From Candidatus Marinacidobacterales bacterium (GTDB lineage Bacteria > Acidobacteriota > Vicinamibacteria > Marinacidobacterales > SMYC01), in contig OZ250169.1 in NCBI GenBank assembly GCA_965237955.1, forward strand, positions 576,001 through 640,000: 64,000 bases of DNA, read 5' to 3'. Below, piece after piece: positions 46,640 through 57,586 of the stretch. Under the pieces are notes generated by a model, which was not told the DNA's origin, did no database searches, and was given only the letters and a program-made list of their open reading frames with translations. How positions within the stretch are numbered: the stretch's first letter is position 1; each line of letters starts with the position of its first letter. A program made the position numbers and the translations under genes.

Positions 46640-47398
46640 TCATGCATCGGCGTTGTCAAATGCCTTTGGCGCAGCCTTGGTCTTTCTCAGAGAAGCTCCT
46701 TTGAGAGTGATGCGGTGCGCGCTGTGGAGAATGCGATCGCAGATAGCGTCTGCCTGGTTTGGGTCGCCAATCGCTTCGTGCCACTGCTTGAGCGGAATCT
46801 GGGTCGCGATGAGTGTGGAGCCACGCTCGGCGCGGTCTTCGATGACCTCCATTAGATCCCGTCTCTCCGATTCTTTCAGCGGGTGAAGCAGCCAATCATC
46901 GATAGCCAGTAAGTCCAGCTTGGCGAGTTTCGTCAAAAGCCGGGCGTAGGAACCATCACCACGAGCGACCGCGAGCTCGTGGAGCAAGCGCGGTGCTCAC
47001 ACGTAGCATCCGGTGAAGCCGCGACGACAGGCCCGCTCCACGAAGGCGCAAGCCAAGAACGATTTGCCAATCCCCGTCGGGCCGGTGATGAGCAGGTTAT
47101 GGCGCTCACCGACAAAGCGGCAGTTGCCCAGGCTCAAGATCTGTTCGCGGTTTAAGCCTCGAGGCGCTTGGAAGTTCACGTTCTCCAAACATGCCGGATA
47201 GCGGAGCTTTGCCGCTCGCAGTCGTCGAGAAAGCTTACGCTGTTCGCGGGCGGTCCACTCGGCATCGACCAGGAGTCCCACACGTTCCTCGAAGCTCAGC
47301 TCCTTGTATTCGCTCGAGCTCAACTGGGTTTCGAACGCGGACACCAAGCCGAACAACTTCATGGCGTTCATCTTTTCTATCGTTTCGGGTGTCAGCAT
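46640..47398 (-). CDS. istB: IS21 helper ATPase IstB (frameshift near 46997)
   Basis: GPTGIGKS, LLAIDDW, ADAICDRI. Confidence 0.88.
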
Positions 47399-48948
47399 CG
47401 GGACTCTCCTCCTTCGTAGTGATCCGCGCCTCGGATGTTCTCGTGCTCCTCTCGCGGTTTCGCTTCGGCGTCCGATTCGAGCACCACACGATCCAGACCA
47501 GCCGAGAGAATGTTTTTCACCGTGCGATAGCTGTAAGAGCTCAAAGCTTCCGCTCGTGCGCAAGCGGCCTCGAGACGCTCACTGCCCCAGCGGCTGCCTA
47601 GTCGCATGACTCCCAGGCAAGAGCGAAATCCCTGCTCCGGGTGAGGCCGACTCTCTAGAATCCCCGCAACCAGCCTTCCCGTGGCGCGACCTGACTGCTC
47701 CGCCCAGTGGAGCAGCCGCGACGGCGTCCACTCCAGGTGCTCCCGATGCGAACGTGGCATATGCTCCGGGTTCGTGGAGTAGTGCCCCTTTCCTTTCTTG
47801 CGGGGATGCGACGCGACGCGCTTTCCCTTGAACAGGACCTCCACCACCGAGGCCGTCACCCGTGCCTCGACTTTCTCGTGAATGAGCTGATAGGGAACGC
47901 TGTACAAGTTGTTCTCCACCTCCACGTGGTAGTCGATGTTCACTCTGCACCGCTTCCACGTCGATAACTCGTAGCTCTCCTGCGGTAGCGGTTTCAGTAC
48001 GGGCCGGTCTAGCCTTTCGTACAACTCCCGCCGACTCACACCGAGCTTCTGCATCGGACGCGCATTCAGGACCTCTAACTTCTCCCAGATGGCTTCGTTC
48101 AGTTCCGCCAGGCTGAAGAACGTGCGATGACGAAGCACCGCCAGGATCCAGCGCTGCGCCACCTGCACTGCCGACTCCACCTTCGCTTTGTCTTTCGGCT
48201 TGAACACCCGAGCCGGGACCACAACCGCACCGTAATGCGTCGCCAGCTCTTCGTACGTCCGGTTGATCCCTGGCTCGTAACGGTCCACCAAATCCACGCC
48301 GCTCTTCAAGTTGTCCGGAACCCAGATCTCCGTACTGCCACCGAAGTAATCCGACATCCCCTTATGGGCCTTCGCCCACGATTCCAGCGACTGGTTCAGT
48401 GTCGCTTCGACGTAGGTGTAACTGCTCGCGCCCAACGTCCCGACGAACAGCTCCATTTCGACGAGCTCTCCCGTTTTCGGATCGACGATGTGAGGCTTCT
48501 TCCCCGAAAAATCGACGAATGTCTTCTCGCCTGCTCGATGCCGTTGACGCATCGTCGGGTTCAGCTTCTTCTTCCACTGACCGTACAGCTCGCAATAACG
48601 GCTGTAGCCGTACGCTCCCGGCTTATTCTCCGCGTACTCCACCCACAGCTGCAGCAACGTCAGCTCTCGGTGACGCCTCAGCTCCTCGTGGATGTGGGCA
48701 TAGTCCAGACCCGGCCGTGCGCCAGACGAGCCCGGCGGCGGAAACAGCCCTGCCTCCAGCTCCCCGTCGCTCAGCTCCTCCGGGAGCGGCCAGCTCAGAC
48801 CACCCTTCTTCGCCTTGGCCAGGTACTCACTCACCGTTCCAACCGCCACGCGAAGTGCCTTTGCGATCATGCGGTGAGTAAAACCCAGCTCGTACTTTAA
48901 CCTTAGAACCTCTCGTATTTTTCTCATCGATAACCTCTTAGCTGCCAT
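47392..48948 (-). CDS. istA: IS21 transposase IstA
   Basis: MRKIREVLRL, FVDFSG, VPDNLKSGV, KDKAKVE, YSVPY. Confidence 0.93.
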   Translation of the reverse strand: MAAKRLSMRKIREVLRLKYELGFTHRMIAKALRVAVGTVSEYLAKAKKGGLSWPLPEELSDGELEAGLFPPPGSSGARPGLDYAHIHEELRRHRELTLLQLWVEYAENKPGAYGYSRYCELYGQWKKKLNPTMRQRHRAGEKTFVDFSGKKPHIVDPKTGELVEMELFVGTLGASSYTYVEATLNQSLESWAKAHKGMSDYFGGSTEIWVPDNLKSGVDLVDRYEPGINRTYEELATHYGAVVVPARVFKPKDKAKVESAVQVAQRWILAVLRHRTFFSLAELNEAIWEKLEVLNARPMQKLGVSRRELYERLDRPVLKPLPQESYELSTWKRCRVNIDYHVEVENNLYSVPYQLIHEKVEARVTASVVEVLFKGKRVASHPRKKGKGHYSTNPEHMPRSHREHLEWTPSRLLHWAEQSGRATGRLVAGILESRPHPEQGFRSCLGVMRLGSRWGSERLEAACARAEALSSYSYRTVKNILSAGLDRVVLESDAEAKPREEHENIRGADHYEGGESRC

Positions 48949-49160
48949 TTCCTAGATCGTCCTCCTTCCGGGTACGACCTAGAGTTGCCTTGAAACGTGC
49001 TATCGATGAGCGTTCGCGATGCCGGAACCGGCGTTCACGTTGCCTGGAATCCGTGTTCACCTTCCCCGGAATCCGTGTTCACGATGCTTTGGAATGGATG
49101 TTCACCTTCGGCTGGAATCTGCGTTCACGATGCCCCGGAATACGCACAAGTCCCTCGTCA

Positions 49161-49318
49161 TCACCGAGGAGGGCGAGTATCACCCCTCTGGTCCGTGTCG
49201 GCGTCAGATCTAGACGAACCTCTAGGAACCGGAACAACAATAGGCTTTTTATTGTTCATTGCCGCCCAAACCAGAGCCCCAATCCAGCCGATCGCCGTCC
49301 AACCGGCAAACAGGTTCA
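49161..49318 (-). pseudogene. Superinfection immunity protein C-terminal fragment
   Basis: LNLFAGWTAIGWIGALVWA. Confidence 0.65.
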
Positions 49319-49490
49319 GTTGCACATCTTGATCGACAGCAGCGGTCTCGCTGCCCACGCCGGCCAGCTGCGCAGAGCACCAAATAGCAGGGGGCTATCG
49401 CAAGCTCCATCTGTGTGTCGACGAGCAGACTGGCGAAGTCGTTGCCGGCGAGCTGACGAGCAAAAGAGCCCGCGATTCATCGCGGGCGGA
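49318..49490 (+). pseudogene. IS903-like transposase internal fragment
   Basis: LHILIDSSGL...RKLHLCVDEQTGEVVA (across a frame change). Confidence 0.6.
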
Positions 49491-49491
49491 A

Positions 49492-51195
49492 CGTGTCAAC
49501 AACTTTGAGACACCCGCGGACTGCATTTAGTGAGCCTCAATCAATGCAGTAAGACTCGTGGGCCCGGGGCGGTCACCGTCTGCGTGCGGCGAGATCTGGT
49601 CGCGTTGGCCTGAATCCGGGGGTACCCCAGGTGTGGACCACCTCGAGAAAGTGGCTCCGGCGGCCTCCTGGCGCGTCGTTTTCTCCGGCGGCGGGTTGAT
49701 CCAGGCCTGAGGAGGCAAAACGGGGGGCTGTGGCATTCCGCGAACGAAGCGTTCGGGATGAGCCCGATGAGCTTCGAGGAGGATTTGGCGCCGGGCAGTG
49801 GTGAGCTGTTCCGCGAGACCATCGTGAACGGCGGCCGGTGTCATGAGGCCGATTCCCGAGTGCCGGCGTTCGTGATTGTAGTAGTCGAGGAAGCCGCCGC
49901 AGAACAGCCGGCCGTCTTCGATGGAACCAAAACGGCTCGGAAACTGAGGGCAATACTTCAGAGTCTTGAACTGGGACTCGGAGTAGGGGTTATCGTTCGA
50001 GACGTAAGGTCTGGAGTGGGTCTTGGTAACGCCGAGGTCAGCCAGGAGCATAGCTACGGACTTGCTTCGCATCGAGCTGCCACGGTCGGCGTGGATGGTG
50101 AGCTGGTCTGGTTCGATGTTCTGTTTGCGGCAGCTCTCGCTGATGAGACGACGAGCGAGCTCAGCGCTTTCTCGTCGAGCCAACATCCACCCGGTCACGT
50201 AACGGGAGAAGATGTCCAGAATCACGTAGAGGTAGTAGTAGGTCCACTTGACGGGGCCACGCAGCTTGGTGATATCCCACGACCAAACCTGGTTCGGCGC
50301 TTCGGCCAGCAGCTCCGGCTTTTGATAATTCGGATGTCGCAGCTGGTTCCGGCGCTCTCGGACCTCTCCGTTCTCCGCCAGAATCCGATACATCGTGCGG
50401 ATCGAGCAGTAGTAGATTCCCTCGTCCAGGAGCGTGGCCCACACCTGAGCGGGCGCCTTGTCGACGAACCGCTCGGAGTGCAAGGCACCGAGAACCAGCT
50501 CACGTTCGGTCACATCGAGGGCTCGGTGCGACCGAGGGCGGCGTTTCGCATTGGACGTCACCGTCTGGCGCCTGCGATACAACGTGGAGCGAGCTATTCC
50601 AAGGGCCTCGCAGGCTTCCGCCGTCTGTCCAATTCGTCCCGCCAGCTCCTCGGCCGCCACCATCAATCGTTCTCGTCGCTGTCTGGTGGATTCAGGGGGA
50701 TCCCCAGAAGTTCGGAGGTTTTTTTTTGGATCTCTAGCATCGTCTCCACCCGAGCCAGGCGATGCTTCAATCGCGCGTTCTCGCGCTCGAGCTCCTTGAC
50801 CCGTGGATCCTCTGCCTTCGCCTTCCGTCCTCGCTTCCTCGATGTCAACCCCGCCTTGGCAATCTTGTCACGTTGGCGACGCCAACTCGAAAGATGCGAC
50901 GAGTACAGTCCCTCTCGACGCAGAAGAGCCGCAACATCCCCGTCACCCTTGCAAGCATCGGCCTCGCGCACTATCCGCAGCTTGTACTCTGCGGTAAAGC
51001 GTCGACGCTTCGCTTGCTCACTCACTTCGGGATCCGGGACCCCTGCCGCATCGCGGCCGGCGCGATCTGCAGTCGCCCTACGGGCTCCTTCCGATCCCGC
51101 CGGGGTCATTCTCTCAATCAACGTAGTCATTCATGATCCTCCTCCGCCCTCTACACTAATTTCAAGGGGCGAAGTGTCTCAAGGAGGTTGGCACA
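49492..51195 (-). mobile_element. IS3-family element, apparently complete (orfA 50663-51130, orfB 49527-50666)
   Basis: RRRFTAEYK; WSWDITKL, HADRGS, DNPYSE; imperfect IR containing TTGAGACAC. Confidence 0.92.
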
Positions 51196-52042
51196 GAGGG
51201 GGCGGGACAACCGCTCTGGAACAGACGAAGCCTTTGGATAAGAAGCTCTCAGTGTGGAGACCCGGGACATTCTTCGCGCATAAGCGCTCTCTTTACGTTC
51301 CGCGGTCCGTCGATAAAAGTGAGTACACGCTAACGATGGGGCTCGATGACAGAGCGACGAAGGCTGCTCTACCCGCGTTTAGCTCCAATGGTCGCCCCCT
51401 GGAAGGAGAGATCCAGCTCGGCTCCATCACGATAAACTGATCGAGTACTCAAATCCACATTGGAGATGCCGTCGAAAGAACGTGCAGTAAGAAAAGGGGA
51501 GGTCGGCGAACCCCCTGGCAGCACCTGGACCAGAACGTGCTAGGCTGCTACGCCCCGGTAGCCCCGGCCTCGATTCTGGGCCTCTGGGGTGTCATCAAAT
51601 CGCCACGCAGCTCCGTGCGTTCGACCTTGATGATGCGATCGTTCCTGCGCGTCTTGAGGACCTGGCCGTAGAAAATACAGATGGTTACCACGTGAAAAAA
51701 CGGCCCAATCAGCCTCAAAATGGCCCCAATTCCCTGTTATTCATGGTTGCCAAGCCGAGACCGGAAGACGCGTTAAGTCTTAGCGTCATCTCACCAACAC
51801 TTAATGGCGGAAGCACCGGCCGCACCGTCTTCGTTCTTGCCTGGGTCTCCGCCCGGGGCAGTCACGGCGGCCGCGTCTCGACCGTCGCGAGGGAGCACGC
51901 GAAAGCTGAGTCATAATGACGGCCGAGCAAAGGGGGCCCTTCTCGATCTGCTTCCTCAGCAGCGTTCAGTACGCGCAACCGCTCGACCCCAACGAGCGCA
52001 AAGAAGTTCCGGGCCCTGAGTGAGTTTGACCTCTGTCCACCG

Positions 52043-53533
52043 TTAATAATTGACGACACGTTCTTCCGGGACAGAGCGTCGGAATCGATTGAACAGAGTC
52101 CGTACTCCCTCTGCCGCAAGGACCGCGATGCACACGGTTGTCGAAGTCCGCATCCTGGTGTCCATCCCGGATGTTTGCGACGCCATCGTTGCTAGAGTGA
52201 CATAGCCGATGATGGTCAGTGTGATAAGAAAGCTAGGCCAGTCCTTCCGCTTCCATATGACGCCAAGCCCAATGCCGGCAAGCGCATACAACGAGAGATT
52301 GTAAATTAGCTCCAGCAAGGATGGCGCACCGTAAAGTGTACTGAAGCCATACATGGAAAAGAGCCCAACTGGAATCAAAGCGATGTACCAAAATGGATGC
52401 TCGAGGAAAACTGATATCGCGATGCGACGCATCGCTCTGACGCGTCGACCGTCCTCAGGTGCAAAATTCCGCCAGAAGTTTGACACTTCGAGCTCCTCCT
52501 GCGGACTGCCCAATCGCTCTTCCAGTTCCAACATAAACTGACGGCGAACGACATCGGGGGACACGCCCCCCCGTGCCCAGCGCTCCACGCTCGCGGCACG
52601 GTAGAAAAGCATGTTGAAGGTACTTACGGTGGTATAGGTGAATTCGCCAATAAAGGATAGATTCCGGCCGCTCCATACAAGCACACAGATGAGAGGGAGA
52701 ATCGCGAAGGCGCTGTACATCCGCCAGCGTAGCCGGACCAAAGAACAGAAGATGGGAAAGCAAAACAGGAACAGATAAATTGTCGTCGGCCTAGCGAGCA
52801 CGGACAATCCCAGCCAAAGTCCAGCAAGACTGGCATCTGACAATCGCTGGAGCTTGACGCTACGCGCCAACCAAAGCACTGACAGGGCGATAAACAAGTT
52901 TGCGAGAGACTCGGCTAGTCCCCTGGATCTTTGATTACTATACAAAGTTAGGCTTTTCGCCAGCCCATAAGATTCATAAGATTCATGCACTTAGAAGGGT
53001 TTCGGCAAGCTCTGCTTTATCTAGTTTGTTCTGATACAGGGGACTAGCACGTTAATGTTGTGCGCCGTAGAGGCAGGGTCGATCGCGACCAGGGCCCCCG
53101 CGACAACGCTGAAGGGAGTGTTGTGTATCAATCTCAGACCAACCAGGTAGGCAAGAGCGGCGGTGGCCGAGCCGAGCAGCGTGTTCGCGACGGCGACCGC
53201 TAGATGCGATTCACCGAAGATCCCATACAGTCCAGCGACGAGAAGCGGCATAAGCGGCGGCCGCGCCGCGAACAGATGGCTCGACCAGCCTGATCCACGC
53301 AGCAAATCCAACGCCAGGCTGTGATACGTATCGTCGGAAGAGAGCTCGAAAGGAGAGAGCTCTCGGGAAAGAGCAAAATAATAGAGACACCCGATACGCA
53401 AGGTGAGAGCACAGGTAAAAATGCCCCCAAGAATCATCCAGTCTTGTCTTCGGAGCGCCACGCCGCGAATCTCTGCCTTGCGGATACTACCAGAAACATC
53501 GTAGATGTTTCTATCTAATACTTCTCTCCAAGT
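52043..53533 (-). pseudogene. PMT/ArnT-like membrane glycosyltransferase interrupted by a MITE; 5' end abuts IS256
   Basis: SDDTYHSLA, RPPLMP; removing the MITE restores NVLAESLAN in frame; LARP. Confidence 0.75.
52915..53047. mobile_element. ~130-bp MITE inserted at CTAG
   Basis: CTAGTCCCCTG ... CAGGGGACTAG; AT-rich interior. Confidence 0.8.
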
Positions 53534-54086
53534 GGATCCGTCCCGCTTCCCGTGGAAATAAGAATGGCGTAACCTCCGGTTAAGCAAAACGAAACCGCGC
53601 CTGGAAAGGCGAGGAGGAGGATTACGCCATGAAGAAGCCTACCAACCATATCGAAGGAGTCTGTAAGCGAGTACCGGGAGTTCGTCCAACTTCGGCTGCG
53701 TAAGCGGGTACTGGAGGCGATCGAGGTCGTGCTCGAGGAAGAAGTCGACCAAGCGCTGGGGTGTGGTAGCTACGAGCGTGCGGAAGACCGCCGTGGATAT
53801 CGCAACGGAGCCGAAACCCGTCGCGTGACGACGTCGGTGGGAACTCGCGAGCTCCGGGTGCCACGAGCCCGCGTGCGAGACGAGGAAACGGGAGAGACGA
53901 CAGAGTTCAGGAGCGAGCTGTTGCCCCGGTACGCGCGCCGGACTCGTGAGGTCGACGAGGCGATCTTGGGGACGTACTTGTCGGGCGCGAATAGCCGCCG
54001 GATCCGCAAAACGCTGAAACCACTGCTCGGTGAGGAGCACCTATCGAAGAGCGCGGTGTCTCGCGTGGTTAGCCGGCTGAAGGAGC
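53534..54086 (+). mobile_element. IS256 copy 3, frameshifted and truncated
   Basis: Matches the left part of the other IS256 copies up to CGGCTGAAGGAGC. Confidence 0.9.
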
Positions 54087-54212
54087 TTGAGCGAGAGAAC
54101 CGTGAGCTAAAGCGGGCAACGAGCTCCTTCGCAAGGCGTCGGCGTTTTTCGCCCAGGCGGAGCTCGACCGCCGACCGAAGTGAAGGTATTGTTCGTAGAC
54201 GAGAACCGTGAG
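54074..54212 (+). pseudogene. IS3 orfA/orfB junction fragment
   Basis: Matches orfA at ~17175-17217 and continues into ..FAQAELDRRPK*. Confidence 0.8.
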
Positions 54213-54254
54213 AGTCCACTGCCCGCAGCCGCCTAGCAACATATCTGGACTCCT

Positions 54255-54550
54255 CTAGTCAAGCCCCTTTCTTAATAAATCTTCCATCGAAGCTGCGCAT
54301 CCATCGCGTCGTGACGAGTGGGTCAGACTGCAAACGTATTCTTCGGCCTCAGTGAGGAGCGTCTTGGGTGCTCCGGGCCATGATGGAAAATCCGCGCGCG
54401 AGGAGCCAATCACTTTGAACGACCTCTTAGGGCCAGTGTTGCTATCGGCTTGACCCCGCGCCGGTCCGACCGGTACGCCATCAGTTGGATGGGTATCGTC
54501 GCAGCCTCTTTTGGAAGGGAAAAAGGAAAACACGAAAGTGGAGCCTCTAA
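54255..54550 (-). ncRNA. Predicted seekRNA/bridge RNA of the IS1111 element
   Basis: Structured non-coding region after the transposase stop; contains UAGCAACACU (complement of target) and UUCCAUCA (complement of element end). Confidence 0.75.
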
Positions 54551-54552
54551 GT

Positions 54553-55584
54553 CTAAGCGGCCATCGGCGACTGGAATTCACTCTCGCGGGTGGAGACGGC
54601 CCAGACGATCCGGGCGAGTTTGTTGGCGACAGCAATCACGGCCTTGTTGTGTCCCCGCGAGCGGTGGACCTTCCGAGCCCAGGCGCGGAGCTTGTCGGGC
54701 GGGCTCTTACTGACGTTCGCCGCGCGGAGCACGGCGCGCCCGCCCTGGGTGAGGAGCATACGGAGGTAGGAGTCGCCACGCTTGGTGATGCGTCCGAGGC
54801 GGCGAATGTCGCCACTGGAGTTTTCCTTGGGAACTAGGCCGAGGTAGCTCGAGAAGCGGCGCCCCGATGGGAAGCGGCGAAGATCGCCGACGAAGCCCAC
54901 GATGGCGGTCGCGGTCAGAAGTCCGATGCCGGGAATGGCGAGAAGTCGTTGGACTTCAGGAAGCTGCTTGGTGAGCGCCTTGAGCTCGTGCTCGATGCCA
55001 GCGCACTTGTCCTTGAGTTCTCGAATCTCGGAGCAGGCATCACGGAGATGCGAACGGAGCACGTCGGGCAAATCAGAATCAGCGTCTTCGACGAGTTCGA
55101 AGAGGGCGGGCACGACGAAGTGAGCGCCCTTTGGGATGATGAATCCGAGTTCGCGCAGGATCCCGCGTACGGCATTGATGCGTGCGGTCCGTGTGGAGAG
55201 CCATCCTGAGCGCAGGCGATGGAGCGCGGCGAGGCTGTGCTGGTGCACGGACTTAATGGGCACGGGAAGAATCTCCTCGTTCCTGTAGGCCTCGAGCAAC
55301 GCTTTGGCGTCGGCGCGGTCGTTCTTGCTCCCGCGTCGATAGGGCCTCACGAGGTGAGGTGGGAGCAGGACGACGTCGTGTCCCAACCTTCGGAACGTCC
55401 TTGCCCAGAAGTGAGCAGAGCCGCAGGCTTCGAGAAGCACGGTGGCAGCGCTCTGTTTGGCAAAAAACGACACCAACTTGGGTCGACTCACACGGAGTTG
55501 CTTGGACACCTTCCCCGCTTCTCCCGAGATGGCAATCTCGAAGACGTTCTTTGCAAGATCCACAGCGATCGTCGTATCTTTCAT
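54553..55584 (-). CDS. IS110-family RNA-guided transposase/recombinase
   Basis: AVDLAK, LEAC, KNDRAD, IPGIG, GLVPKENSSG, AVANKLARI; GGAGG upstream. Confidence 0.95.
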   Translation of the reverse strand: MKDTTIAVDLAKNVFEIAISGEAGKVSKQLRVSRPKLVSFFAKQSAATVLLEACGSAHFWARTFRRLGHDVVLLPPHLVRPYRRGSKNDRADAKALLEAYRNEEILPVPIKSVHQHSLAALHRLRSGWLSTRTARINAVRGILRELGFIIPKGAHFVVPALFELVEDADSDLPDVLRSHLRDACSEIRELKDKCAGIEHELKALTKQLPEVQRLLAIPGIGLLTATAIVGFVGDLRRFPSGRRFSSYLGLVPKENSSGDIRRLGRITKRGDSYLRMLLTQGGRAVLRAANVSKSPPDKLRAWARKVHRSRGHNKAVIAVANKLARIVWAVSTRESEFQSPMAA

Positions 55585-55688
55585 TCGGACTCCTCCTTTT
55601 CGATGCGTATTCGACTGACTTTGGCACATCGATGCCGTCTATGTCAGCGGAGGAGTCCATTCCATCACTTGATGACGGAAGCACCGCG

Positions 55689-55850
55689 TCTGTGCCGTCG
55701 GACTACGATGGAGTCGTCTATACCAAGTTGGATGACGCTGGCGGTTGGAAGACGAAGCTTATTGAAGAGTTGAACGAGGTGGGATTCGCAGGTCAGTTTC
55801 AATTTCCAACTAAGCATCGTACGCGCAGGGCTCGCGATCTATCTGGGTAG
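55689..55850 (+). pseudogene. C-terminal remnant of a TIR-like nucleotide-binding (CAP12-type) protein
   Basis: VPSDYDGVVYTKLDDAGGWKTKLIEEL. Confidence 0.6.
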
Positions 55851-55894
55851 AAACTCCAGTGCTGCATGGAGCGTCCGTTTCATACAATAGCGGG

Positions 55895-56048
55895 AGCATC
55901 CGGGAACCGAGGCCGACTCAACACTGGTGCGATCCAGCCCGTAACTAAGCATGGCCCGGGGATGTTTCGGCACTGTCAGTGGTGACACGCGTGAGCGTGA
56001 TCCCGTTTAGGAGAATGTAACGAATGCCCATCCCTGTTCCCGGATGCT
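55895..56048 (+). ncRNA. Predicted bridge-RNA-like structured RNA
   Basis: 13-bp closing stem AGCATCCGGGAAC/GTTCCCGGATGCT; internal TTAGGAG equals the element's right end. Confidence 0.55.
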
Positions 56049-56057
56049 TCACGAAGT

Positions 56058-57461
56058 ATGAAGGAGCATCTGATGAAGCACAATCGTCGTCAACCCAAGA
56101 AGCGGACTTCTCCATCCCTGCTGAAGCAAATCAACGTGAATGTCGCTGGGATCGATTGCGGCTCGGCCGAGCATTTCGTCGCAGTTCCACCGGAGCGCGA
56201 TCCTAAACCGATCCGTTCCTTCAGGAGTTTCACGGCCGATCTTCATCGGCTCGCCGACTGGCTCGCGACTTGCGGCGTGACGAGCATCGCGATGGAGTCG
56301 ACCGGCGTCTACTGGATCGCACTGTATGAAATCCTCGAAGCCCGTGGCTTCCAGGTCCTCTTGGTCAACGCGCGCCACGTCAAAAACGTCCCGGGGCGCA
56401 AGAGCGATGTCAGCGATTGCGAATGGCTCCGGGAGTTGCACAGCGTGGGGTTGCTCCGCGGAAGCTTTCGACCCGAAGCAGCCATCACCGCCCTTCGTGG
56501 CTACCTCCGCCACCGAGAGACTCTCGTTCAGAGTGCGGTAACCCATATCCAGCGCATGCAGAAGGCTCTCGTGCAAATGAATCTTCAACTCCACCTTGTG
56601 GTCACTGATATCACGGGTGTCACTGGCATGCGGATTCTACGAGACATCGTTGCCGGACAAACCGACCCCCATCGGCTCGCTAAGCACCGTGACCACCGTT
56701 GTCAGTCCTCCGAGGCCGAGATCGCCGCTGCACTCACCGGCAACTATCGCCCCGAGCACCTCTTCGCTCTCAAGCAGAACCTCGAACTCTTTGATGCTTT
56801 TCAGCTCCAGATCCAAACCTGTGACGTGGCCATCGAATCGCACCTGCAGCTTCTAGCTCAACGCTCAACCCCGAACACCTCCTTGCCACCGCCTCGAAAA
56901 TCGCGCAAGCCCCGAGTGAACGAACCTCGGTTCGAGCTCCGGCCTCTCCTCCACCAGATCGCCGGGGTCGACCTCTCCCAGATCGACGCCATCGGACCCT
57001 ATTCCGCGCTTCGCTTGCTCGCCGAGATCGGTACCGATATGAACCGATGGCCTACTGAAAAGCACTTCACTTCCTGGCTTACCCTCGCGCCCAATAACAA
57101 AATCTCCGGCGGGCGACTCCTCAGCTCGAAAACACAACCCTCTGCAAACCGCGCCGCTGGCATTCTCCGCATGGCCGCACTCAGCCTCGGGCGTACACAG
57201 ACCGCTCTCGGCGCCTACTATCGACGTCTCGCCTATCGCGTCGGTAAATCCAAAGCCATCACCGCCACCGCTCGAAAGCTCGCCATTCTCGTCTACCGCA
57301 CTCTCAAGGATGGGCTCGTCTATCAAGACCCCGGGGCCGCCGCCTACAACGCTCAAGATCGCTCCCGTGCCGTGCGCCGCCTGACCCAACGCGCCGCTGA
57401 CCTCGGTTTCGCTCTCATCGACACTCAAACGGGCGACGTCGTTCAGGCGGTAGTTTCTTAG
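56058..57461 (+). CDS. IS110-family transposase
   Basis: AGIDCG, MESTGVYW, GRKSDVSD, LAPNNKISGG, ATARKLA. Confidence 0.93.
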   Translation: MKEHLMKHNRRQPKKRTSPSLLKQINVNVAGIDCGSAEHFVAVPPERDPKPIRSFRSFTADLHRLADWLATCGVTSIAMESTGVYWIALYEILEARGFQVLLVNARHVKNVPGRKSDVSDCEWLRELHSVGLLRGSFRPEAAITALRGYLRHRETLVQSAVTHIQRMQKALVQMNLQLHLVVTDITGVTGMRILRDIVAGQTDPHRLAKHRDHRCQSSEAEIAAALTGNYRPEHLFALKQNLELFDAFQLQIQTCDVAIESHLQLLAQRSTPNTSLPPPRKSRKPRVNEPRFELRPLLHQIAGVDLSQIDAIGPYSALRLLAEIGTDMNRWPTEKHFTSWLTLAPNNKISGGRLLSSKTQPSANRAAGILRMAALSLGRTQTALGAYYRRLAYRVGKSKAITATARKLAILVYRTLKDGLVYQDPGAAAYNAQDRSRAVRRLTQRAADLGFALIDTQTGDVVQAVVS

Positions 57462-57586
57462 GAGTTTGGCATACTCTCACGTCATGAGGTGCGCCTGCTA
57501 CGGACTGGCGGAGAGTCTGCACGGTGCAGGACCTCCGTGCAAAGACAGGCGCACCCCGCCCAGATTCTAACTCTTAGGAGACGACG

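Follow-up and report, generated by a model that had tools for sequence, protein, structure and literature searches.

An IS1111-group insertion sequence whose predicted two-loop guide RNA likely directs it to the right end of an IS1-like element

Insertion sequences of the IS1111 group, a part of the IS110 family, are defined in the available portions of PMC11187229 by subterminal inverted repeats of 11-13 bp, extensions of 7 bp on the left and 3 bp on the right, a long non-coding region downstream of tnp, and a transposase of 330-350 aa with a GL-P-x4-SG motif. For this group, publications already describe guidance by RNA, RNAs encoded downstream of the gene and natural reprogramming (PMC11187229, PMC11208160 and the review PMC13604230). 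Targeting of repeats has also been published, and ISEc21 targets IS3-family genes (PMC11187229). The mechanism is already known, and the element described here, whose target lies in an IS1-like repeat, adds a new case to it without altering the view of how the family works. In the literature that we searched, no report of an IS1111 element aimed at IS1-family repeats was found, and the literature on ISPa25 with attC and on ISMhu11 likewise contained none; ISfinder and supplements lie outside this scope, and a named equivalent may exist there.

The DNA analyzed here is a stretch of 64,000 nucleotides from Candidatus Marinacidobacterales (hereafter, the window), and the element occupies 54242..55667 on its minus strand. 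The closest named element is ISPa25, which is 46.3% identical in amino acid sequence over the full length (the best named match among 5000 plasmid records scored). ISPa25 belongs to an attC-targeting group together with ISKpn4 and ISPst6, and is identical to our element in the first 19 bp, with the same subterminal repeats, RNA scaffold and order of segments. In contrast, the guides and the target differ (attC in ISPa25, an IS1-like repeat here), and in our element the top-strand guide is shifted by 2 nt and spans the cut. Several metagenomic homologues have attC-like right flanks. In 2003, Partridge and Hall reportedly found that IS4321 and IS5075 enter the terminal repeats of a different mobile element, at one position and with one orientation. 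In that case the hosts are the 38-bp repeats of the Tn21 family, whereas here they are an IS1-like element and its MITEs, and nearly always the right end.

The seekRNA elements ISEc11 and ISXne4, as portrayed in the available portions of PMC11187229, share with our element the downstream non-coding region, the 7- and 3-bp extensions, the lack of target duplication, a top-strand match located 5' of the bottom-strand match, and natural reprogramming of close relatives. The account given there concerns target matches only, whereas in our data the donor-binding loop also covaries; furthermore, the reprogrammed pair described there is 72% identical, compared with 93% identity within one genome here. 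IS621, as far as PMC11208160 and PMC13626964 are available, is alike in its two internal loops, four guides, and DEDD residues with a catalytic serine. Unlike in IS621, the RNA lies downstream, the guide order is reversed and the subterminal repeats are long. An RNA upstream of tnp, a short or absent subterminal repeat and a shared core dinucleotide, which mark the IS621 type, were not found.

The element, its ends and its recombinase

This copy is 1426 bp long. Across 15 near-identical copies in genome G000, the length is 1423-1427 bp and mostly 1425 bp, and in a BLAST search of the same genome 18 full-length or near-full-length matches, with fragments besides, have a common start base. A match to the element was found in 10 of the 31 genomes searched, and relatives at 93-98% amino acid identity are present in Candidatus Marinacidobacterales records. 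In contigs from two public runs of two studies (X1 and X3), position 54239 is joined to 55666 at flank depth, with 1426 bases skipped. Because the flanks are joined at flank depth in these contigs, an empty allele of this locus exists in public runs; the difference between the empty and filled alleles is exactly the element.

The left end begins with a 7-bp terminal extension (55661..55667, minus strand), which contains the first TG and is the target of the right-donor guide, followed by an 11-bp subterminal inverted repeat (55650..55660, minus strand) that is kept in homologues. The right subterminal repeat (54245..54255, minus strand) matches the left one at 10 of 11 positions and is followed by a 3-bp extension (54244-54242). 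A 311-bp non-coding region lies 3' of tnp, the insertions have a single target and a single orientation (17/17), and no target duplication was seen. The original prediction, made from the letters of the window, had placed the element in the IS1111 group, and the enzyme profiles, subterminal repeats, extensions and ends bear this out. Its coordinates and sequences for the element and the segments are correct, and TG is present at both junctions of 55667-54242, as it had described.

The transposase is a 343-aa DEDD recombinase (54553..55584, minus strand). Both PF01548 and PF02371 score above the Pfam cut-off for this ORF, and the NCBIfam profile NF033542 gives 308.9 bits against a cut-off of 140. 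The protein has a DEDD RuvC-like N-terminal domain and a PF02371 domain with the SG motif, which are the features of the IS110 family in the broad sense. The recombinase residues are D9, E52, D89 and D92, together with S257 within the GL-P-x4-SG motif, as this motif is given in PMC11187229. A PDB search matched 8wt6 of the IS621 system (E 2e-8), which has the DEDD residues and the catalytic serine, and found no close structure for the IS1111 group.

Upstream of the gene, a hairpin is predicted at 55587..55658 (minus strand; fold z = -3.41), in which the left subterminal repeat (55658-55649) would pair with the ribosome-binding-site region (55596-55587). According to this folding model, the hairpin could silence read-through transcripts. 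In several homologues a second, similar copy of the subterminal repeat is present ahead of the start codon. At the other end of the element, a -35-like hexamer (54257..54262, minus strand) would, if the ends were joined, stand 18 bp from a sequence in the left end that resembles an extended -10 element. From these hexamers, which were read by eye, we infer that the joined ends would form a junction promoter; junction promoters are described for the family in PMC11187229. The sequence proposed earlier for the circle junction holds as a predicted joint, the circle itself being presumed. An end-to-end circle joint was not found in the contigs of four runs, and contigs drop rare forms.

A predicted guide RNA and its covariation with targets and ends

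The core of the predicted bridge/seek RNA lies at 54321..54471 (minus strand) and comprises a basal stem, a target-binding stem-loop and a donor-binding stem-loop. When 29 downstream regions were folded together with RNAalifold, the consensus was a basal stem with two stem-loops, each of which has a large internal loop, and 18 of the 34 pairs are compensatory. In this alignment, 94% of cells are paired compared with 35-46% in slid controls, and none of 500 shuffles reached this level; these values are to be read with the structure being derived from the same alignment. The fold of the single sequence is weak (z -1.82), and the informative fold is the alignment fold only. A search of Rfam gave no family for the guide RNA, its sole match being the ALIL pseudoknot in the adjacent IS3 fragment. 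In the RNA runs X17 and X18, contigs of relatives give little or no cover of the guide-RNA region.

Four guide segments, all on the minus strand, can be read in this RNA, and all of them are unpaired in the predicted fold. The top-strand (right) target guide (54435..54444) complements the target at 10 of 10 positions across the insertion point. This segment had been named in the original prediction, and it is indeed the reverse complement of the target strand over all 10 nt; when mononucleotides were shuffled 2000 times, the 311-nt non-coding region and the 20-bp target shared a match of at least 10 nt in 3 cases. The bottom-strand (left) target guide lies at 54411..54419. The resemblance of 54418-54411 to TCAAGTG that had been proposed reads as described, but the ungapped pairing is 5 nt and a pairing of 7 nt needs a 1-nt bulge. 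TCAAG is kept at three non-repeat insertion sites of a relative; therefore, bulged pairing is favoured for this guide. The right-donor guide (54381..54388) is complementary to the left end of the insertion sequence at 8 of 8 positions, in agreement with what had been claimed for 54388-54381. A fourth segment had been overlooked: the left-donor guide (54335..54342), which matches the right end of the insertion sequence and the next dinucleotide.

We parsed ends and RNA at 76 loci in genomes and 53 in metagenomes. After removal of two misaligned rows (L085 and L138), of near-duplicates and of rows without flanks, 23 rows were used in the permutations for the top-strand guide and 19 for the other guides, from 38. 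The top-strand guide gave 197.0 with the right flank, compared with 138.6 +/- 5.3 in permutations (0/20000; 23 elements), and the bottom-strand guide gave 90.5 with the left flank, compared with 53.7 +/- 5.3 (0/20000; 19 elements). The values for the right-donor guide were 129.5 and 120.9 (1/20000), and those for the left-donor guide were 95.0 and 85.5 (5/20000), the latter driven by 3 variant elements; kinship among the homologues inflates all of these permutation values, and therefore close pairs weigh more. In its own row, the bottom-strand guide of our element ranks second of 19. The check by folding and covariation that had been suggested thus returned a two-loop fold and target guides that covary. 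Both target matches lie in unpaired loops, the top-strand match being the more 5' of the two, and the donor-binding loop matches the joined ends, more weakly and with few variants. By covariation, the three segments named earlier are supported as guides.

Among the close pairs, the sister element in G000 (L005, 5247238-5245814) is a single copy, 93% identical in amino acids and 91% in nucleotides, at a different site. Compared with our element, 4 of 10 and 4 of 9 target-guide positions are changed, in step with the target, and the right flank of the sister can form 9 Watson-Crick pairs and 2 wobble pairs with the sister guide. The site of the sister may be attC-like. Guides also change in step with targets in the pairs L129/L130 and L116/L118, and two copies in genome G009 (L147 and L156) have a third guide/target pair, their own guides matching their own targets. 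Homologues that kept the same segments at other targets would have spoken against the guide reading; the segments change with the targets. The two G009 copies belong to a relative that is approximately 69% identical in its 5' part, and they are inserted in an inverted repeat in whose left arm the sequence of the top-strand guide recurs, which makes the target hairpin-like.

The target in the right end of an IS1-like element

In the window, the left half of the target is the outer 18 bp of an IS1-like right terminal repeat (55668..55685, minus strand), and the right half is the inner part of the IS1-like end (54216..54241, minus strand), which IS3/IS256 fragments cut short after 26 bp. The repeat is present at approximately 200 ends in G000. 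Because the site sits in this repeat, conservation of the flanks in G000 reaches well past the guides. A complete IS1-like element of 1197 bp (G000:3086457-3087653) has the repeats on both sides of its transposase, which is 85% identical to a 355-aa copy (PF03400, IS1: 32.7 bits against a cut-off of 24.1); the 355-aa copy scores 85.1 with NF033558, under the cut-off of 100. Elements of the IS1 family generate target duplications of 8-9 bp. Around the IS1-like element and its MITEs, no target duplication longer than 5 nt was found at 21 of 21 paired ends, and therefore we use the label IS1-like. Many MITEs of 160-250 bp have the same ends as this element.

It is the right terminal repeat of the IS1-like element and its MITEs that the guides match. 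In G000, every end with a perfect 13-mer is occupied (17/17, with 14 distinct left flanks), compared with none of 146 ends with 1-6 mismatches, 15 of which have a single mismatch; outside this scoring are 45 ends whose right side does not resemble the repeat and 7 that are occupied by 5' fragments only. Of the 30 two-ended copies in a related genome, 28 share this right flank; of the other two, one sits in a left-type end and the other has a duplication after it. Two further copies, L043 and L044, are not located in a repeat and retain the short motif alone; therefore, the site is a short linear sequence. The free right ends of transposase-bearing IS1-like copies are changed within the guide-paired bases, by single substitutions or by a loss of 3 bp; these could be escape variants or footprints.

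We consider it very probable that this element is an IS1111 insertion sequence of the ISPa25 branch and that its predicted two-loop RNA steers the recombinase to the 13-bp site in the IS1-like right repeat. The ends, the enzyme family, the conserved fold, the guide-target covariation, the occupancy and the empty allele are directly supported. Nearly all copies are in the repeat, and the 18-bp conserved flank exceeds the guides, as might also be seen if the protein chose the site by recognizing the IS1-like repeat (or bound IS1 transposase) and the RNA matches were incidental. However, a one-base change in the guide-covered 13-mer leaves the end empty in 15 of 15 cases, L043 and L044 have only the short motif outside the repeat, an enzyme of 93% identity uses another target with matching guides, and the guides covary across homologues; we regard recognition by protein as extremely improbable. 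Descent is a different matter: the occupied sites might stem mainly from one old insertion that was carried as a passenger of the IS1-like element or a MITE. One left flank is common to four copies and right-end fragments with identical breakpoints recur across genomes, in keeping with such a history. It is nevertheless very unlikely, because several subfamilies of MITEs and elements, with differing inner sequences, are represented among the occupied ends, contigs of X1 and X3 show an unoccupied site, and saturation tracks the 13-mer exactly.

The RNA-guided reading, which we prefer, is qualified by the state of this particular copy. Its left-donor guide has an extra A at 54339/54340, which is missing from 15 of 15 near-identical copies in G000, from 28 of 28 other aligned RNAs and from contigs of X1 and X3; otherwise, the length of this guide is invariant. 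Either a mutation or an assembly error may be responsible. If the A is real and disables the RNA in cis, the family would be RNA-guided and this copy non-autonomous, and its uniqueness among the copies points in this direction. On the other hand, faulty assembly might account for a single added base within an A run, contigs drop rare variants, and five guide bases remain in register. We think that a non-autonomous copy is a real possibility, although the less probable of the two outcomes, and it would qualify the RNA-guided reading rather than replace it. The RNA of this copy may be impaired by the extra A, and sister copies could supply RNA in trans. In the original prediction, the element had looked like a complete member of its group; this fits at the level of the family, but the fourth guide of this copy is altered.

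Junction dinucleotides, guide register and one-ended products

Junction dinucleotides are unequal in 24 of 26 distant homologues, which rules out TG as a duplicated or shared core. In contrast, IS621 shares a CT core (available portions of PMC11208160 and PMC13626964). The right-donor guide tracks the left junction dinucleotide in 17 of the 26 distant homologues, and the bottom-strand guides track the right junction in 14 and 17 of them. Because the junctions differ and the guides follow separate junctions, we assign the first TG to the insertion sequence and the second TG to the target. This assignment fits the IS1111 view in PMC11187229, in which there is no target duplication, and the top-strand transfer described for an IS110 element (bioRxiv 10.1101/2025.10.25.684509), as far as both sources are available. 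Selection on the donor guide could likewise yield the observed junction pattern.

In 27 of 27 other homologues scored, the longest run of the top-strand guide begins at target +2 or later. In this lineage (3 rows), the guide spans from two bases left of the cut through +8, i.e., it is shifted by 2 nt. For IS621, pairing across the cut before exchange is described as inhibiting insertion (PMC13626964, in part). The present element saturates perfect sites despite a top-strand guide that pairs across the cut.

The reaction that we consider very likely is as follows. From what is known of the family, the ends would join into a circle, creating a promoter, and the transposase and the downstream RNA would form a complex. 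The four guides would open target and donor, and the top strands would be cut 5' of the dinucleotide and exchanged, so that insertion would take place with a single orientation, slightly inward of the outer edge of the IS1-like right repeat. The left junction would retain the donor dinucleotide and the right junction the target dinucleotide. One-ended versions of this reaction would yield tandem duplications joined at NG.

We examined 78 right-end junctions (25 from G000 and 53 from L011-L084), in 56 of which the target follows. The remaining junctions, minus 3 cognate or repeat sites, comprise 15 distinct cases. G is at the second position in all 15 (the frequency of G is approximately 0.3), and the first base is T in 9, C in 3, A in 2 and G in 1; two of the 15 may be degenerate targets. 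Eight of the 15 junctions lie within the element, and the 3' part, including the RNA region, is duplicated. Mirror-image duplications of the left host flank, joined at NG, are present at at least four loci in G000, one of which has seven junctions. At this last locus (G000:2861941-2862400), seven tandem duplications of 48-62 bp of host flank lie beside a copy of the element, and in each the insertion point is joined to an upstream NG. A related joint is also present in RNA run X17. NG is not universal: the right junction is CC in 8 distant homologues and CA in 1. Reciprocal deletion products were also sought behind the truncated 5' copies, of which G000 has 8: all of these end at other elements, and in no case does the right half of the target come next. 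Fragments broken at element positions 307 and 1210 recur in G000, G008, G012, G018 and G025 and abut the same end of another element, which suggests shared composite fragments.

Tandem duplication that keeps the left-donor match is described in bioRxiv 10.64898/2026.08.14.744561, and modular circles are described for ISPpu9 (PMC12288879), each source being available in part. The LD-initiated tandem expansion of IS110 elements in the former resembles our case in that the end repeats keep the left-donor half-match only; its available portions are without mention of IS1111, of an NG rule or of host-flank duplication from a target-left junction. We propose tentatively, and with more doubt than conviction, that IS1111 recombinases follow rules unlike those of IS621. 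Under these rules, no shared core would be needed, because the dinucleotide of each junction would come from the top strand of one partner; bottom-strand guides that end in NG would determine the position of the cut; a 2-nt slide of the top-strand guide, with pairing across the cut, would be tolerated and would leave insertion unblocked; and one-ended transfers by the same enzyme, from either junction to NG sites close by, would amplify the guide-RNA gene and the host flank, as in the array with seven junctions. If this is true, IS1111 rules could be tested with the natural pair formed by the element and its sister of 93% identity. The saturated perfect sites, the empty one-mismatch sites, the empty allele and the reprogrammed sister in the same genome are unusually good internal controls. 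For the IS1111 group, the sequences provide evidence of a donor-binding loop and of rules for the junctions, which could aid programming.

A second, unrelated element of the IS110 family in the neighbourhood (55807-57464, plus strand) encodes 467 aa, has a long upstream non-coding region and is present in approximately 10 full copies in G000. It has its own recurrent target flanks. The idea that it takes the other IS1-like end was rejected, given that its main target is a different one and that 3 of its 20 matches touch the IS1-like repeat. A dense cluster of insertion sequences at 47392-54217 includes a 518-aa ORF that is IS21-like (47392-48948) and an IS3-like pair (49527-51130), both labelled by inspection, an IS256 fragment (53729-54211), and the ALIL frameshift signal from Rfam (54141-54217).
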